From: Nemertoderma westbladi
Lineage: Eukaryota; Animalia; Xenacoelomorpha
NCBI GenBank assembly: GCA_032718475.1
Contig: JAUCBJ010007403.1
Location: forward strand, 1-52,607
Direction: 5' to 3'
Length of the DNA stretch: 52,607 nucleotides
Of this stretch, positions 7,487 to 41,602 are shown one piece after another. Position numbers and translations under genes: made by a program. The notes beneath the pieces are model-generated. The model searched no databases. It saw nothing but the letters and a program-made list of their open reading frames with translations, and was not told where the DNA came from. Numbering within the stretch: the stretch's first letter is position 1; every line of letters begins with the position of its first letter.

Positions 7487-7498
7487 ACCTACGTAGTC

Positions 7499-12853: not shown

Positions 12854-13598
12854 TACTATATAAGAGAGATGCAGGCCAACAATTCAGACTAAGTTGTAAA
12901 ATGAATGTTTGGGTAAATGTTTGGTGACGGGAATGTTGGAGTGCTTGGTAGAATTGGTCTTTTTGATGACATAGACCCTTCTCCATAATTTATTCAAAAA
13001 ATGAACAATATATTATGGGTGTACTTTACTATTTCGACCTTGGTATATTAGTATATTGTGTATAAAGTAGGCCATGGTAGATAGGCCTACTGGTGGAGGT
13101 TTTGCTACCGGTAACTAGTTTTAGTATGTATTGCAGTGCGGTACTTATAACGGCCAGACAATTGATAATAGACAGGCATGGACAGTAGTCACTCCTTCTA
13201 TACATTACATGGCGCTGCGAGTAGGGTCTTACTGATAAAACTACTATATAATGAACAGTGTGTTCTAGTTTTATGTGAGACAGAAGGACCACTCCATTAT
13301 TTATGCTATACGGAGTCAACTTACCGAACCTGCAGTGCGCAGGACTGCAAGTACTGACTGACTGAAGTACAGAAGTACTGGTAGTGTAATACCGGTACTG
13401 AAATATCAGCTAGGCAACTAGGGCTGGATAGCTCTTGTCCACCATTATCAGGTGAAAGCTGAATAATGACGACTAAAACAGGCCTTGATATTTCTGGTTT
13501 GAAGGCTTCTCGTCGGGGTTTTAAATCTGCTGTAACCAAAGCTCAACGTCAAAGCTCTAAGTTACGAGGTAATTGAACCAGCAGATCATTCATTTCCG

Positions 13599-19815: not shown

Positions 19816-21445
19816 ACTACTACTACTACTAGGTCGAGCGAACTCGGACAGTGGAAATGAGATCCTTCCAGGCTTCCCGAATCTCCATAGTTGTCGCAAT
19901 TTCGTTTCTCCCAAGTTCAGTATCCCTTTCAAGTTGATCTATATATGTTATGGCCGGTTGTCCACGACAGCAGTGCCCACTGAATCTTAATCTGCATTCA
20001 CGGAGGGTGGTTGATACAGGTGGTATTGTACCATAAAGCTCGGCGTTTGTCATGTGTTGTCTCCAGCTGATGTTTAGGGCTGCCCTTAGTAGTCTTGTGT
20101 AGCAACCATCAATTCGTTGTTCAAGTGATTTAGTCAGTGTCCAGGTCTCACCCCCGTATAAAAATACACTTTCCACTGTGGCTCGAAAGAACTTGGTCTT
20201 CAGGTGCCTGGAGAGATCTGATTTCCAGATGGTATCCATTTTTGATAGAGCTACCCAAGCCTTTGCTTTCCTAACTTCTATGTCCTTTTTGCTACTCTCT
20301 ATCCATGATCCAAGGTACTGGAAGTCATCGACCTGCCTTAGTTGATTATTATCAATAGTTGTCAAGTTTCCATCAACATTAAAGGTCATGAATTCGGTCT
20401 TGATAGCATTTATATGCAATCCAACCTCCTTAGCAGCCCTCTCCACTTTATTTAGTAGAAGCTGTGCATCTGCTAGTGTATTAGAGAGCAGGGCGATGTC
20501 ATCCGCAAAGTCGGTGTCTGTGACTGTAGTTGCCGGATATCTACTACTTGTGCGTTCTTGAAGTGTGAATCCCAGATCTTCACCCTTTGTGGCCGTCCTC
20601 ATTGCGTAATCCAGCACAATTACAAATAGTAATGGTGCTAATGTGTCACCTTGCAGTACGCCAGCCAGGATTGAGAAAAACTCAGTTTCACCATCTGGTG
20701 AGAGTACCTGCGCTTCTGTGTCACAATATAGCAATCCAATGCCAGCAACAATTACTTCTGGTATTCCATAAGCTCTTAGGATTTCAAGCATTTTACCTCT
20801 ATGGATGGAGTCGAATGCCTTCTTGAAGTCCACAAAAGTCGACTGCGGGGAGATTCTTGACTTGATTCCTTCAATCAGTCTCCGTAGTGCAAGTATCTGA
20901 GCTATTGTCGATCTACTTGGTCGAAATCCGTTTTAGCTCTTACGCAGTAGTTTCTCTATGTGAGGCCTAATCCTATATAGAATCATTTTATTGTATATTT
21001 TGGCAGCTACCACAAGCAGACAGATCCCACGATAGTTTGTTGGTATGCCGAGGTCTCCTTTCTTGGGGAGAGGCTTTAGTTGACCTTTAGTCCAAATTGG
21101 TGGTGGCTTTTCCCCTTTTAACATCCGGTTGCAAACATTCAATAATGGTCTATTTAGCACTCCGGTTTTCCATACCTCCGCTGGGATTTCATCTAAATCC
21201 ACTCGCTTTATTATTGGACATGCTTTTAATGGTTCTTTGGAGTTCGGCAGGTGTGAAGTCCCCTGTTTTTATAGGTAGTGTCTTGTCATATATTTTCCTT
21301 GTAGGGCTGACATCGATGTTTGGTGGCTGCCCAAGCAAGTTGCTGAAGTGATTTTTCCACTTCCCAACACGTTCTTCAGGACTATCGGCTTTGAGGCGCC
21401 CCTTTGCACAACTTTTCCGACCAGATACCTCATTTACAGTTTGCA
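19816..21445 (-). mobile_element. RTE-clade LINE family 2, 5'-truncated and frameshifted
   Basis: PKKGDL..PTNYRGI, DFKKAFDSIHR, GVLQGDTLAP, TDFADDIAL, FQYLGSW and RLRFSGHC motifs; the stop runs into a (TAG)n tail; ORF split into three pieces. Confidence 0.95.
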
Positions 21446-22298: not shown

Positions 22299-22515
22299 AG
22301 GGGGGAAACTGGACGCAATAAAAATTAATTCCTCTCCAGGGGAAATTGGACTCAAATTACAGCTGATTACCCTCAAAAATAAAACTGTACCTGTTCTATT
22401 ATGTTTAGTTTATTGCTTTGGTTAAAATGTAACCTGCTCCTTTCCCTAAATTGAGAATTTAACATTGAGTCGGGATATTAATTCGCCAAGATGGGATTTG
22501 CGTCCAGTCCCACCC
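22299..22515. mobile_element. MITE, ~215 bp, copy 1
   Basis: TIRs GGGGGAAACTGGACGCAA / TTGCGTCCAGTCCC; a second copy lies in the opposite orientation at 44480-44705. Confidence 0.75.
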
Positions 22516-22782
22516 CCCCCCCCCCTCCCCCCAGGTTGTATACCCATCCTGTCATCACTATTTTTGCTTAGAAATACAGTGTCCATGTTCTGATTCTGCC
22601 GGCTTTTAATTTATTAACGTAACCAAATTGTAACGTATAATAAACTTAATTATAGTTATAGAATTATATTCCCTAAATACCGTGGATTTTCAAAATTTTA
22701 TTTTATTCGAATTAACTTTGTAAAGATTGCTTTGAGTTCTCATTCGTATTGGTTCTATCATTTGTACATCTATCGGTCAAGT

Positions 22783-22869
22783 GGTTCAGTAGCTCAGTCG
22801 GTAGAGCGTTGGAAATTATATGTGTAGTAGGTATTGAGTTCAAATCCTAGTAAGTGCGAATTATTTTTT
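22783..22869 (+). ncRNA. tRNA-derived Pol III-like unit in LTR U3 (not a functional tRNA)
   Basis: A box TAGCTCAGTCGGTAGAGC, B box GAGTTCAAATCC and a T6 run at 22864-22869; acceptor and anticodon stems do not pair. Confidence 0.55.
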
Positions 22870-22919
22870 GTGTAGAATTTCAACTCATTTAAATTAACCG
22901 CTACAAATTAATTGCATTT

Positions 22920-23100
22920 GTCTGTACCAATGAGACTGTAGTTATTTGATTGTAACCAATGTCGTGCAAGTTATATATTAGCTGGACCAATAGCTATCTT
23001 TAAAACCTTGTTAGAACCCATAGAACAATCGAGAATTTTCTCGATTGATTGCGGCACAAATTTAGTATATAAAGGTGCGATTCGTTCATTAGTTATCTCA
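22920..23100 (+). promoter_or_regulatory. LTR Pol II promoter: three CCAAT boxes and TATATAAA (23066-23073)
   Basis: Motifs read directly; candidate poly(A) signals AATAAA at 23217 and 23799. Confidence 0.55.
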
Positions 23101-24574
23101 ATCACAATCACAATATCCTATATCTTATATCTCAATCTTTCTCAGATTATCTTATCAATATTCTGTCGTGCTTAGTTTATTCTCAGATTACATTGTATTA
23201 TAATTGTATCTTCTGTAATAAAGTCAGAATATTCTCTCAGCCTTTCTATCTGTTTTACTATGGATTCACTACGGTGAACAAACTCAGGGACAGGATGGCC
23301 GGCTAGAGATCGGGCCGCAGCAATGAACGGGAACATCACGGGAATGTAGACGAGAGACAACCCGCAATACCATTTAGAGTTATTCGCCCATCGCCTGAAA
23401 GGTTAGACAGCGTTCGATCCTTGCTACCTAAGTATAAGACCAAAAGATCAAAAGGTAGACGTAGTGACACGCTGTAAGCCCAAAATTACATCATAGGGAC
23501 TGTACTGTCTTGATTCAGGAAAACCCACAGTAGACCTTCACATTCCTACGGGGAGGGAGAGCGCAGGCAGATACTAGTACGCAGATAGGACGTAGGCACA
23601 CCGGTACAAGGCATACACATTGGTTAGGGTGCAGCAAACTGTACGCTTAACTCTTGCTAAGTACAGGTGCGTGTGCGACTATTTGTAGTACGACAGTGTC
23701 CATTGCATTAGAACTTGTAGGCTAGGGGGGTTGCTGTGTTTTCACCTGAATTGGGATTGTACCGTTCAGGCGGTAGGGCAGTTTACGTACTAGGCGCAAA
23801 TAAATTGAGGCTATCAGGGATACTAACATCTACCGTGTCCCCGCCAACGCCCTAATAGGAAGTTACCCGGACTACCTGGGTGACTAAAATTCTAGATAGG
23901 AGCCAGGATAGCTATTAGTACCCGTACGCCTACAGTAGTAAACTAACACATCTCTTCTTAGTATCAGGGACCTGGTACCAAAAATTGCCGAATTCTGGGC
24001 GTAGTATTAACCTTATGCCTGGATTTGAGTCCTGGAAATACGCAAGAGGGGAAGGAACCTTATCATTCGTGAGTATTGGACCTACAAGTTACAAAATTAG
24101 AATATTCGTAAAATGCACACCGTACCCAGTAATTATATATGTGAAGGAGCAAAACTGCTTTTGACCGTTCAGAATTAACACACGCGCGTTAGAAATTATT
24201 TACACCTCGAAATATATAAAATTAACTTTGTCCGTACTGTGCTTTGCCCGCTAGTTAGACATCTCCAAATATCTGCCTCTGTACCTAGCTAGCGTCCCTT
24301 TGCCCAACCATATAAATCACACCGCGGCAAAGTGTACGAGCCCCTTAGTCCGTCAGTGAGTCAGCCTGATTTTAGGATTCGCTGCGCGGGATTTGTTTTA
24401 TCGAAGTTTGTCTGCTCGTAGACTGTTTTCTGCCTCACCGGTTATAAGAGATCGATACTGCAATATATTCGCTTACTTAGAGTTTACTGTTTTGGTGAGA
24501 AGGTCGGATTTATGATTTGATTTACAAACTTTACAGTAAGGATATTGCAGGTATTGTTACCGTCTCTTCCAATA

Positions 24575-24585
24575 GTAGGAATGTG
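24575..24585 (+). promoter_or_regulatory. Putative primer-binding site GTAGGAATGTG (self-priming type)
   Basis: Abuts the 5' LTR, lacks the TGG of a tRNA PBS, and is the exact reverse complement of CACATTCCTAC at 23539-23549. Confidence 0.6.
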
Positions 24586-25380
24586 TTTTACTGAACTACG
24601 GTTCGGTAGGACTAAAGTTATTTGAAAATTTTGTATTTTGAGGTAAAAAAATTTATATTTGATTAGCTAAGTGCTAATTTTTTGAAATAAAATTTGATTT
24701 GAACCGCGTGTAAAATATTTTTGGAATTGAATACCGGTGTTTAAAAAGGGTTTAAATACCATATTGTACCGGTATTTTCGTAAAGTAAAACCTAACTCTT
24801 TTGTTTTTTCAGGATTCAGAACTCATTTCTAGACTGTAACGGGAGCAAGACCGTGTTTAGCAAGTTTGGGAGATAGATAACTCAACAACTTTGGTTGGGA
24901 AAATCGCGTTTCGTCCGCAACGTTAAAAACGGAAAGGTTCACGTCCGGTTTGTATCTGGGAATCTGTTTTTCTGGAGAATTATTGGAGTGGGTGAGTTCG
25001 AAAAGTTGCATAAATAAGTTAGGCATTACCGTATTAGTTAAAATTATTGTGGGTTCCACTGTCTCAAGTATTTATGCATTCCGTACGATTTCTTTGTTCA
25101 TTGCTGAATTAGTCCGTATTATTGTATTTAATTTACCTTTTGATAACGCATATCGTTATCCGATTTATTTGTTATAAAATTGGCCGCTAGGCTAATTTTA
25201 TTATATACTTATTCCGTGACATTTATTTGCTGTAAAATTGGCCGTTTAGGCTAATTTTATCCATCTGCTATAAAATCGGCCGGTAGGCTAATTTTATATG
25301 ACTGTAACTAGTACCGTTTAGATAAAATACGGTAAACTCGATACTTTGACACTCACTTTACTTGACTTACAACTACCAAA

Positions 25381-25944
25381 ATGAGTGACAAACAAGACTA
25401 TACAAAGAATACACCTACCGACTATGACTCGTGTGACGCGGATAAGTCAGCAGCGGAAGGACAACAGGGGAAGACTCGCGAGCCTACCGAACCTACACCG
25501 TGTGCGTCACCAGTACATCCAACGGGAGTACCGGATGCCGTAGTACGAGGCGACGGCAGGACCGAGGACTTTCTAACTGTTCCGCAACCTAGATATAGGG
25601 AATCGGAAATGGTAAGTTCAGCAGGAAGCACAGAAAGTGTGGTTAGAAGCGTCGGAGGATATATGGCGCATATAACCAGGAGTATTGGGGAAGGCCAACG
25701 CACATTAGACGAGTTGACCGCTCCGATGTCTCGATTCGAATTCTACACCCTCCAGGTTAGAGTGCAAACTAGAGTACACAAGTCCGTAGATAACCTAATT
25801 GGTCTACAAGATCTAGCTAGACAGAGACAGGACATGGATACTCAACTTAGAATCCTCGAGAAACTAATGATCGCTAGAGAGAAACTGATTCAGTTTAAGT
25901 CGACGATTAGACAGATACAACAGGAACAAGCAGTTGTTAGGTGA
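25381..25944 (+). CDS. N-terminal gag segment (ORF1a) of the BEL element
   Basis: ATG in good context; RSVGGYMAHITR is typical of BEL gag N-termini; overlaps the +1-frame polyprotein, which is open from 25889. Confidence 0.7.
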   Translation: MSDKQDYTKNTPTDYDSCDADKSAAEGQQGKTREPTEPTPCASPVHPTGVPDAVVRGDGRTEDFLTVPQPRYRESEMVSSAGSTESVVRSVGGYMAHITRSIGEGQRTLDELTAPMSRFEFYTLQVRVQTRVHKSVDNLIGLQDLARQRQDMDTQLRILEKLMIAREKLIQFKSTIRQIQQEQAVVR

Positions 25945-28900
25945 GTCAGTTTCGGACGAATTATTACAACCCAAGGAAGAACAGGAACTGTACCGACTGG
26001 ATGGACAATTGAAACACCTGACGGACCACTTACGCATGTGCGGCGAAGACGTCGGCGATTTGGAAACCGTGCCGGAATATACGAGGGAAACTTCATTCGC
26101 ACAAATCGAATCGGCACCGGGAATACTAAATCAATCGCTGGTAAGTATTCGTAGCGAAATCTGCGAGGGAAGTATGGTCACGTCGGAAGTTGCCCGACAA
26201 CAGCAAGAATTCTACCAACAACAACGAGAAATCGAGGAACAAGCTCAACTTCTAGTGATGCAGGCAGCAGTAGAGGAAGAGAAGCTGCGCGTTGTAAATG
26301 TAGCGAGAATCTCTCATCTACAGGAACAAGCTGAATTAGAAGCAGCTCAAGTAGAAAGGTTAGAGGTAGACATCGCCCAACAAACGGCAGCGGTTGATTT
26401 AGCGCAACAAAACGCAGCGGTCGAGTTAGAGCGACAGATGGCAGCGACTGATTTGGAGCGACAAAACGCAGCGGCTGATTTGGAACGACAAAACGCAGCG
26501 GCTGATTTGGAACGACGAAACGCAGCGGTCAAGTTAGAGCGACAAATGGCAGCGGCGGAATTAGAGCGACGAAACGCAGCGGCTGATTTAGAGCGACGAA
26601 ACGCAGCGGCGGAATTGGAACGAGAAAGGTTAGTTTCGGAAGCACGGGCCGAAATGAAAACACGGCAAATAAAGGCTCAATCCGCTATACGACAAGCGGA
26701 GTTTGAGGCGCAACGACAACAAACGGAACAACGAGAGAAGACAGCTAAACTTCATTTCGAACTTGAGAAGAAGGCGAGAGAAGTAGCCGAAGCCAAGGAA
26801 AATCTGGATCTTCTAGCCCGCGATCGATCAATGAGATCTCGAGACGGACATGACTTGGACCAGATAGAGGTAAGACATCGCCAAATTCAGGAACGGAAGA
26901 AGGAAGGAAGTGTGGGAGCACCCGGACGGGAACGACAATTAGTAAAGGACTTGTGTCAACGATTCCCACAGGTAACTCATATGTTTGCACCAGTTACGAC
27001 TAAGGAACCTGTTTCGATTGCGGGTAGTAGTAACATTTCTCCTATCCATGGTGCGACGGAACACAGGTTTGTTATTCCGGACAAGTTTACACCGCCAAGA
27101 GCAACGTCGTCGCCCATTCCGAAAGTCAAGGTAAGTAACCCACCGATTACGGATCGTAGTAGTTTATTGACCGGACCTGCGCTACTGACGACAAAACAGG
27201 TGAGTCCACCGTCGACACCTAAACCCGTTACACACTACGCTTACCCAATGACGTTTCGACCAACAAGGCCTTTGGATTCAAAAGCGGTCGTCCGACCACC
27301 GTTTCAGTTTACATCGCAATCTACGACTTCGAGGAAGACTTGTGAGCCTACCGAACAACGGAGAACAGTGGATACGCGACCGTTCAATCAGTTTACATCG
27401 CAATCTACGACTTCGAGGAAGACTTGTGAGCCTACCGAACAACGGAGAACAGTGGATACGCGACCGTTCAATCAGTTTACATCGCAATCTACGACTTCGA
27501 GGAAGACTTGTGAGCCTACCGAACAACGGAGAACAGTGGATACGCGACCGTTCAATCAGTTTACATCGCAATCTACGACTTCGAGGAAGACTTGTGAGCC
27601 TACCGAACAACGGAGAACAGTGGATACGCGACCGTTCAATCAGTTTACATCGCAATCTACGACTTCGAGGAAGACTTGTGAGCCTACCGAACAACGGAGA
27701 ACAGTGGACGATGTTCCGAAACGGAACGTTAGAATTCGAACGACGCAACGGACGCGAGCACGTCGACCACCATATCCAGATGATAGTAGTACTTCAAGCG
27801 AATCGGATTACCCGAAACGCGAGGTATTTAGAACAGGGGCGGCCGATGAATACAAACGCGAGCGTTCAGACAACTCCTTTGCAGACAATCCTCCACAGAA
27901 TACACCAACACAGAAGGCGTTACAACCAACGGACGCAATTAGTACACAACAGTTCGCCGACATCCTGCGACCAGTTGTCAATAAGTTGGCTCAGATCGAG
28001 GAACGTCTGGAGGAAGGTTACACCGACAGTTCGAGAAATTCCGAATTCGAACACAATAGACACCTGAAGGAACCACAAAGACCGGTACCTTCAAACCCCA
28101 CATCGTATCAGGGAAAAGCGCCAAGAAGGGATATCAACAAGGTTACCAACCAAGGACGCGAAACTCTGAACGTTGCCGAGGAGATAGCGAAATTCGCAGC
28201 CAGACAGGGATTGCCGGTACAACAACCACCGAAGTTTTCCGGTAGTTCAAAACACTGGCACACATTCGTAGACTATATCGAATCCCAGATCGCCGTGTGC
28301 GCCTTTACATCACGGGAGAAGTTTAATTACCTGCTTCAAACGTTGTCAGGAGAACCTAAACGTTTGGCGGAGACTTTCGTCGGTGTACCGGACGCTTTCG
28401 AACTAGCGTACGATCGTTTAACTTCGATATACGGAGGTACAGTGAGCATGGCCAGGTCAGTAATAGAGGAACTCTGTAAGGGAGGGGCTATCACTAAACC
28501 CGTCGACTTACTAAAACTAGCTGACGTGATCAAGAACGCTATCACTACCTTAAGATCAATTGGACAACTTGATTACGGGAATACCCCTACAGTCCTATTA
28601 AAGATAATAGGACGACTCCACCATCGACTTCGTCGGGAGTGGAGGAAGGTCGAATACCAGCGAGAAGAGCGGGGAGGATTCTTAAAATTAGAAGATGTGT
28701 ACCTTTTAATATCTAGGGAGGCGGTAGTAGAAACTCGATCTAACTACACCGACCAGCACATCGTGGCAGAAGGGATCACATTGCCATCCTCCAACCGACA
28801 AAAACCCCAGACAACATCCACTAAGACGGCCACTTACACCACACCGACGGAATCACGACAATTCTCAGACGGAGGTAGGGTATCTGCGCCCATTGGGACA

Positions 28901-31900
28901 AAACAGACGAGACAACAACTCGGTACCGACTTCAGCGGCTGCCAATACTGCGAGCATCTAGGTAAGCGGTATATCGGTCACAAGTTACGAGGTTGTCGAC
29001 AATTTCGCGAGTTGAACTCGGAAGAACGACGGCTGCAAATACGGCCATTGGACTCTTGTTGGCGGTGTACGCGACACGGACACGTCCGTAAAGATTGCCC
29101 AAATACCGACACTTGTCCATCCTGTGGACGCAACCACGACGGTCTGCTCCACACAGACAGCCACACGCCGACGAAACGCTTCGCCAGGGAACACCCGGAA
29201 GCAGCAGCGAGATGTGATGCGGCTTACCGAAAACGAGAATCGAAAACGACTCCAACCTTCGTGACCCATATTGAGGATTGCTTCTCAGAACAATCCGGAT
29301 CGTCGGACGAAGAATCAGAAGACGACGACGAATATTCCAATGGAGACGAACAACCGTCGATCGCGCTTCTGACCACTGACCAACTGAAGGGATTCAGTGT
29401 AATCCCGATTAAGATCACTGGCACCAAGGGGAGTAAGAGGATCTACGCGATTCTAGATTCAGCCTCATCTCATAGCTACGTGGATGAAAAGATAGCTGAC
29501 GTAGTGACGGATCTTAAACAAGGTAAGCACGTCAGTTATACAGTAAGTAGTATGCACGGACAGCGTGCAATACCAGTGACACGAGTTAAGTTGGACTTAG
29601 ACTCTCTTCTTCCAAAATCGCAGCACAGCGAGAGGGAGAGGTCTTTGTTGCCCTTTAAAGATCTAACCTTTGCGGCCACGAAGGACTTTAGTAACCTACT
29701 AGGTCCAGTGCCGGAACAATCTCTAGAGGACCGTAAGTATTTCAGACACCTTGGTGTACCTGAATGTCCTGTCAATTATAGATCGGTAGCAATGCTGATC
29801 GGGACAGACCAATTCAACCTACATCAGGTGTGGGAAACCAGACCATCGGCAGTTGTAGCGGGAAACGCATACGCCTGCAGAACGCCGATAGGGTGGTATA
29901 CTCGAGCGCCTGTGCGCACACTAGACGTAAGTGACGAGGAAGACGATGTACAGAGTACATGTAGTTTATTAACTACAAATTCAATTCATTCCTTTTCACA
30001 CGACGTGAACCATACTACACTACAGTCGACAAAACATAACAGACGTGTAACTAGTATGATAAGTCACAAGGAGCAGCTAATTCACCAGGTGAGTTTAGAA
30101 CTTGGGGAGAAGACGAGTCAGCTAGAGATTCCATCGACGACAGATGATAGGCTTGCGAGTCTACCTACCCCAATAACCTCAACAGTGCCCGTCGAGATCG
30201 ATGATGACGCGTTGAGAAATCATCAGTTGGAACAAGCTGTACTAGACAAAGAATTAACGGAGAAGACTATCAGGTGGTTAGAACAAGATACAGCTGAACC
30301 TGGTAGCTACGAACCTTGTATGTCGGAACAGGAGAAACAATCTCTGAAGATCATGGAAGATACTATCCACCAGACGAAAGACGGACATTATGAGGTAGGG
30401 ATGTTATGGCGTAGCCAAAGCCCTAAACTCATAAACAACTATCCACTGGCTTTGAGACGTCTACACTCAATACGGCAACGTCTATTAAAGGACGAGAAAG
30501 CCCATCTGCAGTACAACACCCAGATGGAGACGTATTTGACTAAAGGATACGCTATCCGAATGACGAACCCGGAGATAGTGACTGACCAAACATATTACTT
30601 GCCACATCACTATGTGAGACACCCCGATAAACCAGACAAAGTACGCATAGTCAACGACTGTGCGGCTCTGTTTGAGGGAATGTCCCTCAATAGTGAGTTG
30701 ATGGATGGACCAAACATGAATAATTATCTAATGGGGGTGATTATGCGCTTCCGTCAGCGTCAAGTAGCTTTTACTTGTGACGTTGAAGCGATGTTTCACC
30801 AAGTGAGAGCGTTAGAGCGAGACAGAGACAGTTTGCGGTTCCTCTGGTACCCGGAAGGAGACTTAAGTCTACCACCGGCGACTTACCAAATGCAAGTTCG
30901 CGTTTTCGGTGCCAGAGACAGCCCAAATTGCACGATGTACGCCCTAAAGCAGGCCGCTAGAGATCAGAAACACCTATATGACCCAGAGATAATTAAAATC
31001 GTAGAACGTGACTTTTACGTCGATGACGGTTTACAGAGTTGCGACACAGTAGAACGTGCTACAACAGTAGCACATCAATTACGGGACTGCTTAGCGGGCG
31101 GAGGTTTTAACCTCACCAAATTCGCCTCAAACAGTGCCGAATTAGTAGACTCATTCGGAACGACTGAGCGTGGAGGTGGTGACATAGACCTAGAGTTCGA
31201 ACCACTACCGACGACTAAGGTGTTGGGGCTCTTTTGGGACCCAAACACAGACAACTTTCGAGTGAAGGTGAGACTGGACAGTCAAGAGAACACACTGACA
31301 AAGAGATCATGCTTGTCAAAGTTGAGCCGATTGTTCGATCCGTTAGGATTCATCAGTCCAGTAATACTGCAAGCCCGCATTTATATGCGCAGTATATGGA
31401 AGGATGGACTAACATGGGACGAGCCGATCTCATCAGACCAAGTGGACTTATGGAAGACCTGGGAGGCGGAATTATCTTCGCTAGAGGATTATTCCATACC
31501 CAGGGTTTACTTTCCATTACAAAGTACATTTCCTGACAACTTGGAACTACACTGTTTTTCTGACGCCAGTGACAACGGTTTTGGTGTGGCAGCGTACTTG
31601 CGCAGACAAGTAGAATCAGACGAGTTCGATGTTTCGCTCATTACTTCTAAGGCTAAGACCATGCCTACTAAGTATATGACGACACCACGAGCCGAGCTAC
31701 AAGCCGCAACCCTGTCAACCACCATCGTGAACCTCATACAGACAGAACTACAGTCGAGTTTACAGATATTTTATTGGACTGACGCGACGTTGGTTTTATT
31801 TTACATAAACAACGACACACTCGAATTCAAGACATTCGTAGCTAACCGTCGCGCGGAAATTCTAGACCGTTCAATAAAAGAGGATTGGCGACATTGCCCC

Positions 31901-34396
31901 GGACCACAAAACCCAGCTGATATTGCGTCGCGAGGAATGATGCCTGAGGAATTCTGTAAACCGGAGAACAAAGAATTTTGGCAACACGGACCCCAGTTCT
32001 TGCAGAAATCGACACAAGATTGGCCTCCGTTATACGACAACAAATCTAACACTATCCCAAAGGACGCCGAAATCAAGAAACCAAAAAAGGGGAAGACAAA
32101 GAAAAGGACGACGGTGGCAAAACTCAAGAAAAAACCGAAGGCGAAATGGAAAGATATAACTTCAAAGGTCAAGAGAGGAAGACTTGCGAGCCTTTCTACA
32201 CCAGACATATCGCCAGACGGTCAACCAGACGCATTACTAGACGGTCATCCAGACATTCTACCAGACACTAGTGACATACTGACAAACAGTAAAGCCGCAG
32301 TTTCCCTATTGGAGCGGCCTTCTATTGACAAACAACCAGATATGTTACCAGACGTATCGCCAGACACATTACTAGACAGTCGACTAGACATTTTGTCAGA
32401 AACATCACAAAATGTTCTACCGGACATTAGTAATTTATCGACTAACAGTAAAGCCGCAGTTTCCCTATTGGAGCGGCCTTGTATTGACAAACTACCAATT
32501 TTGACACACTTGAGCAACCATAAGCACGGTGAAACCTCATGTATTACAGATGTGGGTAGTACCTACGCTAATGTAAATACAGGTGTTACTTTGCGCTCAA
32601 GAGACATACCGAACCTGCAACCTATGGTGAGACCTGGGATTAATGTCGGCAGAAAAATTAGTTTACCGAAACCCACTGATCCCATAGAGTTCAAACCACC
32701 ATTAACGATCGACTTACAAAGTACTGACAATCAAGGTAAGAAGACAAAGAAGGACAAATTACTTGTAGACCCGGACGGATCAACAGTCAACAAGGGAATA
32801 CTTACCGGCGGACCCGTGGGCCCTTCTAGTAATTCAAAACCTTCCAAATTCTCAATTGACTTACCTGATGACGTCACAAATACTCATGTCGACCGTATTG
32901 TAAACTTAACAGATTCTTGGTCGAACGCTTGCCGAAAATTAGCGTGGATTGTACGTTTTGTACAATACGTTAAAGGCAAACGCGACTTTACACGTCGACT
33001 TACATTGGCTGAGATTGACAGGTGTGAAATTATATTAATTCGCCATTATCAACTGCGATATTTCGCGCGCGAATTCACATCCATAAATCAAGGTCAAACA
33101 ATCAAGTCGTCACCAATACTGAGTTGGAGTCCGATAATTTATAATGGCTTAATTTGTCATAAATCTCGGCTTCAAAACATTGACTTTAACACAAACTTTG
33201 GGTACCCAATAATAATACCGCAACATCACGAACTACAACGTGCAATGATACTGGACGCACATTTACATCTAAAACACGCTGGAAGACACCACTGTCTTTC
33301 CTACTTACGTACAAGATTTGTATTAATTAGACCCAGTAAAGCATTAAGTTCAGTGACACGTACGTGTATTATTTGTAAAAAGGTACATTCTAGAATAGGT
33401 ACCCAAGAAATGAGTGAACTACCACAAGCACGACTTCAAGCATTCAAACCACCTTTTACAGAGACTGGAATTGATTGCTTTGGTCCCATACATACGAAAC
33501 GTGGACGTATACTAGTAAAACGCTGGGGACTGATTTTCACATGTATGTCCAGTAGGGCAGTTCACATTGAACGTGTGATGGATCTTTCCACCAACGCGTT
33601 TATACTAGCACTGCGGCGATTTATCGCTAGACGCGGACTAGTGAAATGCTTGTACTCAGACCAAGGGACAAACTTCGTTGGTGCTCGGAATGAGATTGCT
33701 AGAGCCTTTAAGAAATTAGATCATGATCAAATCTCGAACGAACTGCAACCTCACAAGATCGTTTGGAAGTTTAATCCTCCAGATAGTCCTTGGAGAGGCG
33801 GAGTCTGGGAGAGATTGATTAGATCTATAAAGACAGCCATGGCAAAGGTCATTCCAGTAAACCACATACTGACAGACGACCAACTGACAACATTGTTTGT
33901 TGAAATCGAGGCAATACTAAATACTAGACCAATAGTATTAGTACCCGATGACAAACAATCTCAGTTCGCTTTGACACTGGCACACCTGCTAATGCAGGCA
34001 CCGACCACTTTGACGCCGATTTCTATTCCAATAGAAAGCGACAGCTACGGTAGAAAAGCGTGGAAAATCACGCAACTACTGGCTAACAAATTCTGGGAAA
34101 TATGGCAAAACCATTATTTGCCCTCTATTTCTGCCAGAACAACATGGTACAATAACACCCGCGCATTAAAGCCGGGAGATCACGTGCTGTTGGCAGAAGT
34201 GAATCTAAAAAGACGCTTCTGGATAACAGGTGTAATTTTAGCCACACATCCATCTATGGATGGAGTGACAAGGACTGTGACAGTACGGACAATTGACGGT
34301 CGTACAGTAGACAGACCGACTCAACGTCTCGTACTTCTTGAAGAGACTCGTAACGAGTCTGGAGACTACAAATCTCCACCTAATACTAGTAAATAA
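25934..34396 (+). CDS. BEL/Pao Gag-Pol polyprotein (gag, triple Cys knuckle, aspartic protease, RT, RNase H, integrase)
   Basis: PPKFSGSSKHW (gag); CQYC..H..C / CWRCTRHGHVRKDC / CPSCGRNHDGLLH; AILDSAS (PR); DFYVDDG (RT); CFSDASDNGFG (RH); H..H..CIIC, GIDCFGP, YSDQGTNF and GGVWER (IN). Confidence 0.97.
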   Translation: MLGESVSDELLQPKEEQELYRLDGQLKHLTDHLRMCGEDVGDLETVPEYTRETSFAQIESAPGILNQSLVSIRSEICEGSMVTSEVARQQQEFYQQQREIEEQAQLLVMQAAVEEEKLRVVNVARISHLQEQAELEAAQVERLEVDIAQQTAAVDLAQQNAAVELERQMAATDLERQNAAADLERQNAAADLERRNAAVKLERQMAAAELERRNAAADLERRNAAAELERERLVSEARAEMKTRQIKAQSAIRQAEFEAQRQQTEQREKTAKLHFELEKKAREVAEAKENLDLLARDRSMRSRDGHDLDQIEVRHRQIQERKKEGSVGAPGRERQLVKDLCQRFPQVTHMFAPVTTKEPVSIAGSSNISPIHGATEHRFVIPDKFTPPRATSSPIPKVKVSNPPITDRSSLLTGPALLTTKQVSPPSTPKPVTHYAYPMTFRPTRPLDSKAVVRPPFQFTSQSTTSRKTCEPTEQRRTVDTRPFNQFTSQSTTSRKTCEPTEQRRTVDTRPFNQFTSQSTTSRKTCEPTEQRRTVDTRPFNQFTSQSTTSRKTCEPTEQRRTVDTRPFNQFTSQSTTSRKTCEPTEQRRTVDDVPKRNVRIRTTQRTRARRPPYPDDSSTSSESDYPKREVFRTGAADEYKRERSDNSFADNPPQNTPTQKALQPTDAISTQQFADILRPVVNKLAQIEERLEEGYTDSSRNSEFEHNRHLKEPQRPVPSNPTSYQGKAPRRDINKVTNQGRETLNVAEEIAKFAARQGLPVQQPPKFSGSSKHWHTFVDYIESQIAVCAFTSREKFNYLLQTLSGEPKRLAETFVGVPDAFELAYDRLTSIYGGTVSMARSVIEELCKGGAITKPVDLLKLADVIKNAITTLRSIGQLDYGNTPTVLLKIIGRLHHRLRREWRKVEYQREERGGFLKLEDVYLLISREAVVETRSNYTDQHIVAEGITLPSSNRQKPQTTSTKTATYTTPTESRQFSDGGRVSAPIGTKQTRQQLGTDFSGCQYCEHLGKRYIGHKLRGCRQFRELNSEERRLQIRPLDSCWRCTRHGHVRKDCPNTDTCPSCGRNHDGLLHTDSHTPTKRFAREHPEAAARCDAAYRKRESKTTPTFVTHIEDCFSEQSGSSDEESEDDDEYSNGDEQPSIALLTTDQLKGFSVIPIKITGTKGSKRIYAILDSASSHSYVDEKIADVVTDLKQGKHVSYTVSSMHGQRAIPVTRVKLDLDSLLPKSQHSERERSLLPFKDLTFAATKDFSNLLGPVPEQSLEDRKYFRHLGVPECPVNYRSVAMLIGTDQFNLHQVWETRPSAVVAGNAYACRTPIGWYTRAPVRTLDVSDEEDDVQSTCSLLTTNSIHSFSHDVNHTTLQSTKHNRRVTSMISHKEQLIHQVSLELGEKTSQLEIPSTTDDRLASLPTPITSTVPVEIDDDALRNHQLEQAVLDKELTEKTIRWLEQDTAEPGSYEPCMSEQEKQSLKIMEDTIHQTKDGHYEVGMLWRSQSPKLINNYPLALRRLHSIRQRLLKDEKAHLQYNTQMETYLTKGYAIRMTNPEIVTDQTYYLPHHYVRHPDKPDKVRIVNDCAALFEGMSLNSELMDGPNMNNYLMGVIMRFRQRQVAFTCDVEAMFHQVRALERDRDSLRFLWYPEGDLSLPPATYQMQVRVFGARDSPNCTMYALKQAARDQKHLYDPEIIKIVERDFYVDDGLQSCDTVERATTVAHQLRDCLAGGGFNLTKFASNSAELVDSFGTTERGGGDIDLEFEPLPTTKVLGLFWDPNTDNFRVKVRLDSQENTLTKRSCLSKLSRLFDPLGFISPVILQARIYMRSIWKDGLTWDEPISSDQVDLWKTWEAELSSLEDYSIPRVYFPLQSTFPDNLELHCFSDASDNGFGVAAYLRRQVESDEFDVSLITSKAKTMPTKYMTTPRAELQAATLSTTIVNLIQTELQSSLQIFYWTDATLVLFYINNDTLEFKTFVANRRAEILDRSIKEDWRHCPGPQNPADIASRGMMPEEFCKPENKEFWQHGPQFLQKSTQDWPPLYDNKSNTIPKDAEIKKPKKGKTKKRTTVAKLKKKPKAKWKDITSKVKRGRLASLSTPDISPDGQPDALLDGHPDILPDTSDILTNSKAAVSLLERPSIDKQPDMLPDVSPDTLLDSRLDILSETSQNVLPDISNLSTNSKAAVSLLERPCIDKLPILTHLSNHKHGETSCITDVGSTYANVNTGVTLRSRDIPNLQPMVRPGINVGRKISLPKPTDPIEFKPPLTIDLQSTDNQGKKTKKDKLLVDPDGSTVNKGILTGGPVGPSSNSKPSKFSIDLPDDVTNTHVDRIVNLTDSWSNACRKLAWIVRFVQYVKGKRDFTRRLTLAEIDRCEIILIRHYQLRYFAREFTSINQGQTIKSSPILSWSPIIYNGLICHKSRLQNIDFNTNFGYPIIIPQHHELQRAMILDAHLHLKHAGRHHCLSYLRTRFVLIRPSKALSSVTRTCIICKKVHSRIGTQEMSELPQARLQAFKPPFTETGIDCFGPIHTKRGRILVKRWGLIFTCMSSRAVHIERVMDLSTNAFILALRRFIARRGLVKCLYSDQGTNFVGARNEIARAFKKLDHDQISNELQPHKIVWKFNPPDSPWRGGVWERLIRSIKTAMAKVIPVNHILTDDQLTTLFVEIEAILNTRPIVLVPDDKQSQFALTLAHLLMQAPTTLTPISIPIESDSYGRKAWKITQLLANKFWEIWQNHYLPSISARTTWYNNTRALKPGDHVLLAEVNLKRRFWITGVILATHPSMDGVTRTVTVRTIDGRTVDRPTQRLVLLEETRNESGDYKSPPNTSK
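26385..26625 (+). repeat. 27-bp coding repeat (AAADLERQN)n, predicted coiled coil in gag
   Basis: About 9 imperfect units in the translation. Confidence 0.85.
27305..27708 (+). repeat. 84-bp perfect coding tandem repeat, ~5 copies (FTSQSTTSRKTCEPTEQRRTVDTRPFNQ)
   Basis: Period 84 seen directly (27333, 27417, 27501, 27585, 27669). Confidence 0.95.
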
Positions 34397-35053: not shown

Positions 35054-38000
35054 ATGGAGAAAGGGATACAAGGAGAACCGAGATGGGGATATGATATCCA
35101 AGAGGAGGCAGCAGCGCCATTCGAAAGATTTGGAGCCAAGGATTATACTATATTTGGTATAAAAGAATTATCGGAAAGTACAGCGAAACTCGCGAGAACT
35201 AAATATGACTCGAATGTATTAAAGAGAAGGCAAAACGCATTAAACGAAAGAATCGAAAGTTTGCGCCAAACCTTCAACGAACTTTACCCGTACGATGCTT
35301 TGTGTGATACGGGAGACATTAGCGAAGACCCCGATACTGAAATTAGTCGTTTGTATCATACCATGCAATACCTAAAGGCACACGAACCTATGCCCGCGGT
35401 ACGCGATGAATTCGATGGAATGCATCTTTACAGACGAACTCGAGGGGACGATAGAGAAACCAAGGAAGCATTTTCAGTTTATAAACTTTATTATCAATGC
35501 GGTTCTTGTATGCGCGAACAACGAAATGCGATTCCGATGCGTTTGAATAAGGAAAATCCCGAACCGATATTGGCGAGGTGTTCGAATCATCAACAACTAC
35601 GCTACCAGGAAGGAGGGTATCCTTTATCGAATCCATATCATTCATTTGCTATGACCGGACCAAAGGCGGGAGAAACTGTCATTTACCCACCTAAGGTTGT
35701 TGAACCCGATGTATTTGAACTTACGCTGGACGAGGCGAATCAGTCAACCCGTGAAAAGAAAGAAGCTCTTAGCCTATACAGAGCCTATAAGGCTTTCGAG
35801 AAAGGTGAGATGGAAGAATGGGGTGGAAGACTCGCGAGCCTACCTTGCCATTGGACGTCACACGATCAAACTTCAGCTAAGGAGATGACACCGGAAGTTT
35901 TCGAGAGCATAAACTTTGCTCAAAACGTTATTCAGAGACTACAGATTGCATCCCCGGAGAGGCCAAGAGAAATGCAACCGTATAGTACTTCAACTACGAA
36001 ACCATTGAGTACGACACTCAATTTCCCTATTAGTATACCAGTCCGACAGGATACGACGTACGAAATACCCATCGTGGATCATCCAGAAATCATTTCAAAC
36101 TTGGAGTTTCTTCCTGCAGTTGTTTTCAGCGATATGAGTAAGATATATGATTTACGTAGACATATTACTCAAAAGGTCGTGCACAACGTTCCACCTCATA
36201 TTCAAGATTTCAAGGAACTGGATAGAGCTGGTGCCGACATAGCTCCGAGTAATCTGAAAGGATATCTGACCAAGACGATTCGTTTATGGATTGGAACCGG
36301 AACCTTCGAGTCGGATACAGATATCGCCGCAGATTGGCGAGGTAAGGTTATTCGTTTCGATGAGGATAAGGACATAGAGAAGATTTGGCAACCTTCGGAA
36401 GAATTGTTGGATGAATGGACTAGGACGTTTAGATCGTTTCAGGAAAACGGTTATATGTTTTACGATAACGAGGGCGGCAGTCATCAGCAGAGTTTGACTT
36501 CTAAGACTATACAGATTAGAGCGGCGGACGGAGTCCTGCACGTTTTCAGTAGACAGAGGAGCGACAAACGAATGCCGATACCTCCAGCGAATACAAAGCG
36601 ACACCATCTTATCACCGATATAGTAAAGAAGATGGACCAAGCTTGTAATATCGACGCTAGAATGCTACCGAAGATGGTAAGAAACATGATTTTAGATAAA
36701 ACTGTTGTAAAGGTTGGATCAGGAGTAAGGGAGGATTTAATTAGCGACTTCGCCGGCATGACGGACAGCGATGACCGACTACCGACACCATACGTCGACA
36801 CTCGACCTCTTATTCTGTGGTCTATAGAACAGGGATATTTTCGTGAGTATAATACTCAGAAGACTGGAACTGGATACATTTCCTACCTGTTATTCAATTG
36901 GGATTATAAGGAAGGTAAAAGAAACAAGTATATTGAAACTTATGGAGAAGGTGATACTCCAGATATGAGCGAGTTTGAATCACAGCTTAAATGGAGAGGA
37001 TGCGTGTATTGGGCTATTACGTCACCTCCAAGAGCGGTCTTACAATATTATTTAGCAATAGAGTCGTCAGTGAATGTTTGCCTAATCGCCGACATTGTGT
37101 CTCGGACTCTCAAAAGACATCCACTTTGTCTCGGAGAAGATCATACGTTCTACATGGAAGGGAGAATTCGTACCGACGTGTTTAGACGATTCCTTGAACC
37201 CTTCTACAACTCCGACGCTCAGTGTAATGCCTTTACTCGAGCAGGATTTAGCATATTTCGAGACGTGTATCTTCGCTGTGCGGGATCTCTTATCGAAAGA
37301 CCATCTATGTTTACACTGTTACCCTATGAAGGAGAACGTATCGTGGAAATTACGGATGAATCACGGCAGACGCGCGCGCCTATCGGTCACCTTGGTGATG
37401 AATTCGAAGTAACTACTACGATCGCCGACGATCCTTTAGAGGAACTTCTTGAGATAGAAAGGAACCTCCCGAAGAAATCTCAGACGGAGATTCGACAACT
37501 TGAAGCAACAGATGCTATAGTTTGTATACAACCTTCAGAAACCTACCAACCCATAGACCCAGATGATTACGATTATAGTATGGGAGGAAGCGCTCGACCG
37601 ATTGGAGATCTTATATACGAACGAGTGTGGTACCCTGCCAATACGATGTGTAGTAAATGTGGCGTCGCTGGACATCATATGGCAAAGTGCAGTGGAAAGC
37701 ACATTACTACGACTCAGCTAATCTGTGGATGGTGTGGGGATCAAGGGTCTCATACCTTTTATACTTGCTGGAGATTTATGGCTCAATGTACTTACTGCAA
37801 TATAAAGGGACATCGAGCATCTGAATGCCAACTAAGAGACATACCTTATGAACACGAATCTGTAAAACTCGTGAGGAAGTTATTTGATGAGTGGGAAGAT
37901 TTAGCCGACGAACATGTATCGGCACAGAGAAGACGGTTTCTGATGAGAGCGCATCTCGGATTTTGGGCGGTAAATCCCCAGACGATGATGTCGGAAGGAT

Positions 38001-38779
38001 ATATCTCCGCTATGCCCCAATATGACGAACTTATCGAGGTTGTCGATATTTTGCCCCACGACAGCGGATTCCGAGTGGTGCGCGAGTATCTGTTACAAAT
38101 TCACCCGGATAACAAAAACACGTGGAATTTTCAGAAAGTCGTTAATCGGATTACGTATGGTGAATTCGATCGTTTCCGAACTGAAAAACGGAATAAAGGA
38201 GCTTGGTTAACCGTCGCATGGGCGTACCGAGCCGCGTTTTACCACAAACGTATACGAGCGAGCGTATTCGAGGAAGAAGAGGTCCTAGAGGCGACAAATA
38301 TACCAGCCACTCCGGTTGCGCCGTCTGCACGTCACCCTCGGGAGGACGGGCAGGGTAGGATCATACGGGTCCAGAAGGTGGGCCAACAATTGAAGAAAAT
38401 TATTAATGTAGAAGAACGCAAGGGAGTTGAGCCGACTATTCGAGTTACTCGGGATACGGTATCACTTCCAAGAGAACCAGTAGGAGGATCGGGACATACA
38501 CCAGCTGATCAACAGGGGGCGCAAGCTACTCTTGGGTCTGCGTCGTCCGCTTCTCGCGCGTTCCCAGACGTTCTACCAACTGTAGTGACAACTGATCGGT
38601 CACGAGGAATCGGTCGAGGTTTTGGGATGCTAAATAGACGAATTTGCGAGGAAATAGTAGCACCGTCTCTCAACGTCCCAAGTAAACCAGTGACTCGCCC
38701 CATTAGTCCCATATCGCGAGCAAAGTCACCTGTGCGCAGATTTCGAGGACGCGGCAGGGCTCGATCAACTAAGCGATAA
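35054..38779 (+). CDS. Accessory ORF3 of the BEL element: DEDDy (WRN/RNase D/EXD-like) 3'-5' exonuclease domain plus three CCHC zinc knuckles
   Basis: Intact 1241 aa between pol and the 3' LTR. ExoI FYDNEG..TIQIR; ExoII LPKMVRNMILDKTVVKVGSGVREDL; YVDT; ExoIII-like YYLAIE. Knuckles CSKCGVAGHHMAKC, CGWCGDQGSHTFYTC, CTYCNIKGHRASEC. Basic C-terminal tail; no signal peptide or TM segment, so not env. Confidence 0.85.
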   Translation: MEKGIQGEPRWGYDIQEEAAAPFERFGAKDYTIFGIKELSESTAKLARTKYDSNVLKRRQNALNERIESLRQTFNELYPYDALCDTGDISEDPDTEISRLYHTMQYLKAHEPMPAVRDEFDGMHLYRRTRGDDRETKEAFSVYKLYYQCGSCMREQRNAIPMRLNKENPEPILARCSNHQQLRYQEGGYPLSNPYHSFAMTGPKAGETVIYPPKVVEPDVFELTLDEANQSTREKKEALSLYRAYKAFEKGEMEEWGGRLASLPCHWTSHDQTSAKEMTPEVFESINFAQNVIQRLQIASPERPREMQPYSTSTTKPLSTTLNFPISIPVRQDTTYEIPIVDHPEIISNLEFLPAVVFSDMSKIYDLRRHITQKVVHNVPPHIQDFKELDRAGADIAPSNLKGYLTKTIRLWIGTGTFESDTDIAADWRGKVIRFDEDKDIEKIWQPSEELLDEWTRTFRSFQENGYMFYDNEGGSHQQSLTSKTIQIRAADGVLHVFSRQRSDKRMPIPPANTKRHHLITDIVKKMDQACNIDARMLPKMVRNMILDKTVVKVGSGVREDLISDFAGMTDSDDRLPTPYVDTRPLILWSIEQGYFREYNTQKTGTGYISYLLFNWDYKEGKRNKYIETYGEGDTPDMSEFESQLKWRGCVYWAITSPPRAVLQYYLAIESSVNVCLIADIVSRTLKRHPLCLGEDHTFYMEGRIRTDVFRRFLEPFYNSDAQCNAFTRAGFSIFRDVYLRCAGSLIERPSMFTLLPYEGERIVEITDESRQTRAPIGHLGDEFEVTTTIADDPLEELLEIERNLPKKSQTEIRQLEATDAIVCIQPSETYQPIDPDDYDYSMGGSARPIGDLIYERVWYPANTMCSKCGVAGHHMAKCSGKHITTTQLICGWCGDQGSHTFYTCWRFMAQCTYCNIKGHRASECQLRDIPYEHESVKLVRKLFDEWEDLADEHVSAQRRRFLMRAHLGFWAVNPQTMMSEGYISAMPQYDELIEVVDILPHDSGFRVVREYLLQIHPDNKNTWNFQKVVNRITYGEFDRFRTEKRNKGAWLTVAWAYRAAFYHKRIRASVFEEEEVLEATNIPATPVAPSARHPREDGQGRIIRVQKVGQQLKKIINVEERKGVEPTIRVTRDTVSLPREPVGGSGHTPADQQGAQATLGSASSASRAFPDVLPTVVTTDRSRGIGRGFGMLNRRICEEIVAPSLNVPSKPVTRPISPISRAKSPVRRFRGRGRARSTKR

Positions 38780-39460: not shown

Positions 39461-39684
39461 TGGTGAATTTAATTTAGATTTATATTGTACTTACTTAGTA
39501 AAGCCTTAAATACGTAAAGTTTGAATTTGTAATTATTTTGTATCGAATCATTACGTAGAAAGGAAGTATTGTTTGAAATTTAATTGTAAATATGTAAGTA
39601 CGCCCTAAGTATTCTATAGTTTGATTGATTATTGGTGAAAACCGTATATTTTATGCACGATAATATCCTGTTTTCATGGAGCGG

Positions 39685-41602
39685 TATAGAATTATATTCC
39701 CTAAATACCGTGGATTTTCAAAATTTTATTTTATTCGAATTAACTTTGTAAAGATTGCTTTGAGTTCTCATTCGTATTGGTTCTATCATTTGTACATCTA
39801 TCGGTCAAGTGGTTCAGTAGCTCAGTCGGTAGAGCGTTGGAAATTATATGTGTAGTAGGTATTGAGTTCAAATCCTAGTAAGTGCGAATTATTTTTTGTG
39901 TAGAATTTCAACTCATTTAAATTAACCGCTACAAATTAATTGCATTTGTCTGTACCAATGAGACTGTAGTTATTTGATTGTAACCAATGTCGTGCAAGTT
40001 ATATATTAGCTGGACCAATAGCTATCTTTAAAACCTTGTTAGAACCCATAGAACAATCGAGAATTTTCTCGATTGATTGCGGCACAAATTTAGTATATAA
40101 AGGTGCGATTCGTTCATTAGTTATCTCAATCACAATCACAATATCCTATATCTTATATCTCAATCTTTCTCAGATTATCTTATCAATATTCTGTCGTGCT
40201 TAGTTTATTCTCAGATTACATTGTATTATAATTGTATCTTCTGTAATAAAGTCAGAATATTCTCTCAGCCTTTCTATCTGTTTTACTATGGATTCACTAC
40301 GGTGAACAAACTCAGGGACAGGATGGCCGGCTAGAGATCGGGCCGCAGCAATGAACGGGAACATCACGGGAATGTAGACGAGAGACAACCCGCAATACCA
40401 TTTAGAGTTATTCGCCCATCGCCTGAAAGGTTAGACAGCGTTCGATCCTTGCTACCTAAGTATAAGACCAAAAGATCAAAAGGTAGACGTAGTGACACGC
40501 TGTAAGCCCAAAATTACATCATAGGGACTGTACTGTCTTGATTCAGGAAAACCCACAGTAGACCTTCACATTCCTACGGGGAGGGAGAGCGCAGGCAGAT
40601 ACTAGTACGCAGATAGGACGTAGGCACACCGGTACAAGGCATACACATTGGTTAGGGTGCAGCAAACTGTACGCTTAACTCTTGCTAAGTACAGGTGCGT
40701 GTGCGACTATTTGTAGTACGACAGTGTCCATTGCATTAGAACTTGTAGGCTAGGGGGGTTGCTGTGTTTTCACCTGAATTGGGATTGTACCGTTCAGGCG
40801 GTAGGGCAGTTTACGTACTAGGCGCAAATAAATTGAGGCTATCAGGGATACTAACATCTACCGTGTCCCCGCCAACGCCCTAATAGGAAGTTACCCGGAC
40901 TACCTGGGTGACTAAAATTCTAGATAGGAGCCAGGATAGCTATTAGTACCCGTACGCCTACAGTAGTAAACTAACACATCTCTTCTTAGTATCAGGGACC
41001 TGGTACCAAAAATTGCCGAATTCTGGGCGTAGTATTAACCTTATGCCTGGATTTGAGTCCTGGAAATACGCAAGAGGGGAAGGAACCTTATCATTCGTGA
41101 GTATTGGACCTACAAGTTACAAAATTAGAATATTCGTAAAATGCACACCGTACCCAGTAATTATATATGTGAAGGAGCAAAACTGCTTTTGACCGTTCAG
41201 AATTAACACACGCGCGTTAGAAATTATTTACACCTCGAAATATATAAAATTAACTTTGTCCGTACTGTGCTTTGCCCGCTAGTTAGACATCTCCAAATAT
41301 CTGCCTCTGTACCTAGCTAGCGTCCCTTTGCCCAACCATATAAATCACACCGCGGCAAAGTGTACGAGCCCCTTAGTCCGTCAGTGAGTCAGCCTGATTT
41401 TAGGATTCGCTGCGCGGGATTTGTTTTATCGAAGTTTGTCTGCTCGTAGACTGTTTTCTGCCTCACCGGTTATAAGAGATCGATACTGCAATATATTCGC
41501 TTACTTAGAGTTTACTGTTTTGGTGAGAAGGTCGGATTTATGATTTGATTTACAAACTTTACAGTAAGGATATTGCAGGTATTGTTACCGTCTCTTCCAA
41601 TA
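39685..41602 (+). repeat. 3' LTR, 1918 bp
   Basis: Copy of 22657-24574; preceded by a short purine-rich GGAGCGG (weak PPT) and followed by the TSD ATAGT. Confidence 0.95.
39811..39897 (+). ncRNA. tRNA-derived Pol III-like unit, 3' LTR copy
   Basis: Identical to 22783-22869. Confidence 0.55.

Follow-up and report, generated by a model that had tools for sequence, protein, structure and literature searches.

Probable self-priming of reverse transcription in a BEL/Pao retrotransposon of Nemertoderma westbladi

Organization of the element

The window, that is, the whole stretch of 52,607 nucleotides that was analyzed, contains at 22657-41602 a BEL/Pao retrotransposon of about 19 kb, the features of which are collected in Table 1. 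The two LTRs of 1918 bp are identical (0 mismatches), so that the insertion is very recent and the copy is young and intact-looking. The assignment to BEL/Pao is based on the Gag-PR-RT-RH-IN order and on the Pao-type domains DUF1759, Peptidase_A17 and DUF5641. All of the top protein relatives carry PF05380, and the closest protein matches in the searched set are approximately 31-44% identical, with no close relative there; a search of viral contigs for relatives found none. The family to which the element belongs is very abundant (high-copy) and variable in the runs of organism A, where it shows signs of expression. The TG...CA ends that are usual, but not strict, in BEL/Pao are absent, and the LTR begins and ends with TATAG...CAATA; TATA ends are among the non-canonical LTR motifs listed in the available part of one source (PMC8220671). 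Besides the TATA box at 23066, four further TATA-like sites occur in the LTR.

Table 1. Positions of the features of the element in the window
Feature	Position	Strand	Remarks
Target-site duplication	22652..22656	+	ATAGT, 5 bp; second copy at 41603-41607
5' LTR	22657..24574	+	1918 bp, TATAG...CAATA, equal to the 3' LTR
tRNA-derived-looking segment in U3	22780..22856	+	copy at 39808-39884; A box at 22790, B box at 22838, then a T run; no tRNA fold
TATA box	23066..23073	+	predicted upstream promoter; probable start near 23095
First AATAAA	23217..23222	+	5' of the primer; followed by a U-rich tract
GT..AG intron enclosing the 11-mer and the primer-binding site	23402..24812	+	donor AG/GTTAGA, branch-like CTAAC, pyrimidine tract, CAG/G; joined form in run X4 only
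Candidate self-primer (11-mer)	23539..23549	+	second base A23540 is +1 of an initiator-like TTCACATT
Purine-rich segment (adjacent stem)	23550..23569	+	best LTR partner of the last 20 bases of U5
Second AATAAA	23799..23804	+	249 nt 3' of the primer; predicted R end of the genomic RNA; 3' LTR copy at 40827
Primer-binding site	24575..24585	+	without TGG, directly 3' of the LTR
Hairpin directly after the primer-binding site	24586..24611	+	11 bp, C(UACG)G loop; z -5.2, 0 of 200 shuffles
First ORF	25381..25944	+	187 codons, overlaps the long ORF in another frame; without a Pfam match
Gag-Pol frame	25889..34396	+	DUF1759, two CCHC knuckles, DSAS protease, YVDD RT, Peptidase_A17/RNase H, integrase zinc domain, DUF5641
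Extra ORF after pol	35054..38779	+	1241 aa, no transmembrane segment; two CCHC knuckles and a third, variant one
Candidate PPT	39678..39684	+	short purine-rich GGAGCGG before the 3' LTR
3' LTR	39685..41602	+	holds the second copy of the 11-mer at 40567-40577

A donor-like site, AG/GTGAGT, lies at the end of the first ORF, the overlap of which with the long ORF spans 25889-26036, and an 84-nt tandem array is found inside Gag at 27220-27800. The extra ORF has neither a Pfam match nor a match among solved structures, and its single-sequence model has a pLDDT of 32. Atlas feature matches point to a 3'-5' exonuclease of the DNA_pol_A_exo1 type, with scores of 0.82 for the whole protein and 0.89 for residues 480-800 (below 0.9), and the presence of such a domain is a weak lead. 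Two weak relatives of this ORF were found, and residues 535-654 and the knuckles recur in one distant relative. The tRNA-derived-looking segment of U3, which in most copies in the runs differs at two B-box positions, may represent a polymerase III promoter or a SINE that was inserted long ago.

The element is flanked by inverted repeats (22302-22494 and 44499-44703, with stretches of 88 and 67 nt that are 90-94% alike), which represent either a small repeat family or a host element that received the BEL copy. Farther out, the window holds long ORFs of 769, 446 and 479 codons at 13536-17463 and 47092-48531, which have no Pfam match, C2 domains at 7478-8401, a fragment of a non-LTR-type RT at 19829-20932 (-), and tandem arrays of 15, 22 and 56 nt (1-4200 and 48600-50660). 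Inspection by eye revealed two SINE heads of tRNA-like type that carry A and B boxes, at 44790-44860 (+) and 43200-43285 (-), neither of which was called by ARAGORN.

The primer-binding site and its complement in the LTR

As noted in the preliminary description, the 11 bases that directly follow the 5' LTR (24575-24585, offset 0 from the LTR end) are the exact reverse complement of 23539-23549 and of its 3' LTR copy, 40567-40577; the 12th base fails to pair. The absence of the TGG with which a tRNA-type primer-binding site (PBS) starts was likewise borne out, as no TGG is found anywhere in 24560-24620. In the window, the 11-mer has 3 matches against 0.06 expected. Dinucleotide shuffling of the LTR reproduces it in 2 of 3000 cases, or in 11 of 3000 when any of five PBS offsets is allowed, and 2 of 100 pseudo-PBS windows taken from the interior of the element reach a match of 11 (offsets 0-4, spliced matches allowed). 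At the 22 paired positions, no variation occurs among the 40 rows listed of 241, a figure that is uninformative.

A primer created at a splice junction was also considered for this LTR and was rejected, because the best spliced match is 8 bases, against 11 contiguous ones. Separately, loose ends in runs X1, X3 and X4 at 24563-24582 suggest a variant of the family that repeats, across a short spacer, the last bases of U5 together with the initial 8 of the PBS; this variant might be a by-product of priming that marks the 5' end of the primer near 23542, or a plain duplication.

Self-complementary primer sites in distant BEL relatives

An alignment-based scan of metagenome contigs gave 80 BEL loci with 37-45% identity to the element. 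A distant direct repeat is present in 30 of these loci, and 15 of them, corresponding to 12 families, have a readable LTR end; left out of the 30 were L001 and L040, which have doubtful ends and no match of 10, and 13 loci without a definable end. The ends of the LTRs were placed manually, and the list of donors was fixed after a first look at the data.

In 9 of the 12 families, or 10 of 13 if the present element is included, the PBS lies 0-4 nt after the LTR and matches the family's own LTR over 10-14 bases, whereas only 5 of 156 cross-family PBS-LTR pairs match, 4 of these among three sister families. The matching letters differ from family to family. The preliminary description had proposed a comparison of related families for compensatory changes between the two 11-mers, and across these families primer and PBS do change together; the evidence is of distant families and not of aligned compensatory changes within the element's own family. 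In a blind version of the comparison, own matches of at least 10 bases were obtained in 11 of 25 cases against 22 of 200 cross pairs, the latter figure being inflated by related families, and two further matching loci were added, L039 (11 bases, contiguous) and L057 (14 bases, spliced).

The match is contiguous in L004 and L038, as it is in the present element. In L013, L015, L018, L021, L032, L036 and L066, it arises only when a GT..AG intron, which has a pyrimidine-rich acceptor, is removed. Among the three families that miss, L064 reaches 6 bases under a strict acceptor filter and 11 under a looser rule, which would make it a spliced type, L042, in which the two LTR copies carry damage at different positions, reaches 8, and L053 reaches 5 and has a TGG-type site. 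The 5' LTR of L066 (1-214) is without exactly the intron that is kept in its 3' LTR (6850-7265) and therefore carries a contiguous primer; intron loss, as these two LTRs read, converts the spliced type of primer to the contiguous type. The contiguous primer of L039 (225-402) resembles the joined form of the L066 primer. In a FastTree tree, which contains no named reference sequences, contiguous and spliced types are scattered and the present element sits on a long branch with an unsure place, so that no ancestry is claimed. Because of this long branch and of the 37-45% identity, the relatives support the principle of self-priming and not the details of this element.

Several further properties of the site are shared. 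In 10 of 11 families, the first three bases of the paired site are GTT or GTA. A CA is positioned at -2 to +1 from the first base of the primer in 8 of 11, where 1.8 are expected (P 5e-5, for a window picked post hoc); three of the 11 families have no CA there, and L039 and L057, which were found later, both have one. An A(A/T)TAAA is located 3' of the primer, 11-249 nt downstream, in 9 of the 10 families that score at least 10, an arrangement that cis priming and strand transfer need. Only the present element, among the matching families, also has a poly(A) signal upstream of the primer (23217).

These data bear on the possibility that a host tRNA half or another small RNA is the actual primer and that the LTR match is a coincidence or derives from that RNA by copying. 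The sequence of the 11-mer is compatible with an anticodon arm (pyrimidine, U, CCU, purine), half-tRNA primers occur in Copia lineages (in the available text of PMC6317226), and PBSs complementary to anticodon loops are described for Helenus elements (in the available text of PMC10886601). A chance match, however, has a p of approximately 0.001-0.004, each relative matches its own LTR with different letters, and the tRNA-like segment of the LTR does not contain the 11-mer. Neither Rfam nor ARAGORN gives a match over the 11-mer: ARAGORN finds no tRNA in the window or in the 18 of 80 loci that were examined, and an Rfam search of 22600-25900 with E up to 5 finds no known ribozyme or tRNA. Judged by the improbability of a chance LTR match, a small host RNA is a very improbable primer. 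Given the exact complement and the family-specific matches in distant BEL relatives, tRNA-independent self-priming by one route or another is, in our estimation, highly probable, a judgment that is made from sequence complementarity.

Adjacent stem and predicted folding

It had also been proposed that the pairing continues beyond the 11-mer through a stem between 23555-23563 and 24561-24570. This stem does form in a two-strand fold and is well placed, but its strength does not exceed what base composition provides: 212, 80 and 112 of 1000 shuffles do equally well for segments of 20, 30 and 40 nt, respectively. Of the 1878 LTR windows, the six that pair best with the last 20 bases of the LTR all begin 0-5 nt 3' of the 11-mer; in long folds, the same 20 bases pair preferentially with 24423-24439 instead. 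In Tf1, the sequence that follows the primer must also form an adjacent duplex with the end of U5. Here, a comparable stem is found in one of 10 relatives (L013), and, as judged by predicted pairing, it is specific to this element and that relative and is not a feature of the clade. A 12-base stretch at the LTR end (24561-24572) recurs just within and after the L013 PBS (65-77 of that locus), possibly by chance.

The hairpin that follows the PBS (Table 1) competes for G24585, and the stable duplex of primer and PBS is thus predicted to comprise 10 pairs, beginning at A23540. The predicted pairing of primer and PBS depends on where the RNA starts: it is 0.0 for starts at 23095 and 23241, about 0.65 for starts at 23402 and 23470, and about 1.0 from 23510 on. 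Forcing the duplex in the long RNAs costs only 8.6-9.5 of about 430 kcal/mol, and folds of RNAs of 1.1-1.6 kb are unreliable.

The duplex could instead be a leader structure that serves packaging, splicing or translational control, with priming by a different route such as a protein or a DNA end. Both partners are located in the same intron, and the 3' half of the primer can form a small hairpin of its own (equalled in 7 of 200 shuffles). Against this, the pairing begins exactly at the LTR boundary in this element and 0-4 nt from it in all of the relatives, which is where a primer must end, and no other primer site is visible. We regard a purely structural role as quite improbable.

Transcripts and splicing of the LTR

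The anatomy of the RNA rests on contigs from a single comparison of runs, and contigs cannot show starts or levels. A joint of 23399 to 24811, which becomes GT..AG once it is shifted by +2, has a depth of 250 in X4 and of 0 in X1, X3 and X5. Run X4 is on record as 'DNA?' and is probably RNA; it shows A>G at 104 places versus T>C at 9 and has loose ends at 23401. Since the intron at 23402-24812 contains both the primer and the PBS, the spliced RNA cannot serve as a template for reverse transcription. Another X4 contig spans the 11-mer from 23482, 57 nt upstream of it. If X4 is RNA, this contig shows that RNA does cross 23540 from upstream, which is compatible both with read-through from the 3' LTR and with an internal primer. 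A second X4 joint, 23429-23567, in a contig with many other letters, ends at the AG of 23566 just past the primer and stem and is a possible alternative acceptor.

The preliminary description had concluded that the mechanism may differ from that of Tf1, as the 11-mer appeared to lie about 450 nt downstream of the predicted start. The TATA box (23066) on which this view was based is real; the distance of 450 nt is a prediction, other TATA-like sites being present in the LTR, and a difference in mechanism is probably not needed, because upstream transcripts apparently splice out primer and PBS, an initiator-like CA is present at the primer, and the duplex is predicted only for RNAs that start at or after about 23400. 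Relative to A23540, a DPE-like AGATA is found at +30 and not at +28. Initiator motifs are common. A scan for bacterial promoters, a method that is irrelevant here, found none.

If the upstream start were nevertheless that of the genomic RNA, unspliced RNA from the TATA promoter would pair its internal 11-mer with the PBS and be cut after 23549, and the primer would be a fragment of about 450 nt or a trimmed form of it, possibly produced by the putative exonuclease of the extra ORF. The clear TATA box, the X4 contig that enters the 11-mer from upstream, and the TATAAG that two relatives have only 11 nt before the primer all agree with such an internal primer, as do the intron-split relatives, for which a start at the primer would imply first exons of 4-7 nt. 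On the other hand, the pairing has a sharp boundary at the primer's 5' side, which in 8 of 11 families is close to a CA, folding predicts no duplex for RNAs with long starts, and the upstream transcript is apparently spliced over the PBS. Taken as a whole, an internal primer seems unlikely, though it deserves consideration.

Alternatively, one RNA could act in trans as primer donor for a second, uncut RNA with R ending at the first poly(A) site, or the end of the primer could be a poly(A) cleavage site. A good U-rich tract follows the first AATAAA, better than that downstream of the second, and this signal looks the stronger of the two; in X4, the depth drops after it relative to X1, which is a weak indication as contig depth is not a level. 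No poly(A) signal, however, is found in the 40 nt before 23549, the signal in the relatives lies 11-249 nt downstream of the primer, and the adjacent stem points to an intramolecular fold. Priming in trans or from a 3' end consequently has little probability.

A two-start model of self-priming

The reading that we favor, and to which we give somewhat better than an even chance, is Tf1-like self-priming by a route with two promoters and two starts. The TATA promoter, with a start near 23095, would produce an RNA that is spliced from 23401 to 24813, lacks the PBS and serves translation. A TATA-less initiator at the primer, located 3' of the splice donor, would produce from about 23540 a genomic RNA that keeps the PBS. 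In this genomic RNA, the 5'-terminal 10-11 bases would pair with the complementary site that immediately follows the LTR, and a cut after C23549, assumed by analogy with Tf1 to be made by the RNase H of the element, would yield the primer. Minus-strand DNA would then be extended through U5 as far as 23550 and be transferred to the 3' LTR. This transfer would require that the genomic RNA read through the first AATAAA (40245) and terminate 3' of the second (40827), which presupposes a choice between poly(A) sites. The sizes that result would be about 880 nt for U3, 280 nt for R and 750 nt for U5.

The unusually short first exons of 4-7 nt that intron-split relatives would have speak against the two-start model. 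The model predicts a capped end at 23538-23542, a primer of 10-11 nt and a poly(A) end after 40827, for which ordinary RNA mapping suffices. More generally, much of the BEL/Pao superfamily may have replaced the tRNA primer with its own RNA and use splicing as a control in two opposite ways: most of the relatives would build the primer by removal of an LTR intron, and in the two-promoter LTR of the present element a single intron would delete both primer and PBS from the mRNA, only a second start providing the self-priming genome. We hold this wider proposal to be a little short of an even chance.

Comparison with known systems

To our knowledge, Tf1-type Ty3/gypsy elements are the only ones for which self-primed reverse transcription has been demonstrated, and it has been predicted for one plant Copia lineage. 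A BEL/Pao case would represent a third superfamily and suggests that tRNA priming has repeatedly been lost and replaced. If self-priming is true of these animal elements, they would be freed from silencing by tRNA fragments; it would also account for BEL elements that are annotated without a PBS and provide a simple rule for locating start sites. No report of self-priming in BEL/Pao was found in the literature, the coverage of which fell short of most subscription papers, the primary Tf1 papers, Repbase notes and supplements. As far as term searches show, one of two surveys of BEL/Pao mentions neither PBS, tRNA nor self-priming (PMC554778), the available part of the other does not mention them either (PMC3118150), and a survey of molluscs mentions neither PBS, primer nor tRNA (PMC6238403).

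The element shares the set and order of its domains and the 5-bp target duplication with tRNA-primed BEL/Pao elements (Belpaoviridae) such as Achilles. According to the accessible text of PMC4580426, Achilles has a tRNA-Tyr PBS and TG...CA ends, whereas the present element has no TGG and has TA...TA ends. It also exceeds the usual BEL/Pao dimensions of 0.2-1.2 kb for the LTR and 4.2-10 kb for the total length, as given in the available part of PMC3118150, with its 1.9-kb LTRs, its length of about 19 kb and its large extra ORF. The segment of the LTR that resembles a tRNA and carries A and B boxes is reminiscent of Helenus TRIMs, which, as far as the available text of PMC10886601 describes them, are short, non-autonomous and tRNA-primed, unlike this large, coding element.

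In the TAR lineage of plant Ty1/copia elements (Houba, Osr-1), the PBS is complementary to the LTR over at least 10 bases and lies 0-5 bp after it, by the definition in the available portion of PMC6317226, and the same arrangement is found here. The two differ in superfamily and domain order, and TAR elements occur in plants. Self-priming is predicted for this lineage and for Tcn1 in the same portion of that source (PMC6317226).

The closest mechanistic parallels are Tf1 and Tf2 of Schizosaccharomyces pombe, Tj1, and the Tf1/sushi and Tcn1 groups of Ty3/gypsy chromoviruses, which lack a tRNA site and in which about 11 bases of the LTR transcript complement the PBS, as in the present element. 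In the Tf1 RNA, the initial 11 bases serve as the primer, and RNase H cuts between bases 11 and 12 (PMC7175516, in its available text); Tj1 of S. japonicus self-primes in a similar way (PMC4600332, likewise in part). By its domains, the present element belongs to BEL/Pao and is without the chromovirus-type RT and integrase of Ty3/gypsy; it lies outside the Tf1/sushi group but most likely works like Tf1 self-priming. In contrast to Tf1, its primer is located 1025 nt from the LTR end, within an intron of a longer upstream transcript, and we infer both start and cut. Alternative starts in Tf2 produce RNAs with or without the self-primer, the latter of which cannot support reverse transcription (PMC5341516, in the part available), whereas the non-priming RNA of this element seems to arise from an upstream start and splicing and not from a downstream start. 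The present element would accordingly combine a known mechanism with a new superfamily and with an apparent separation of mRNA from genomic RNA by splicing.
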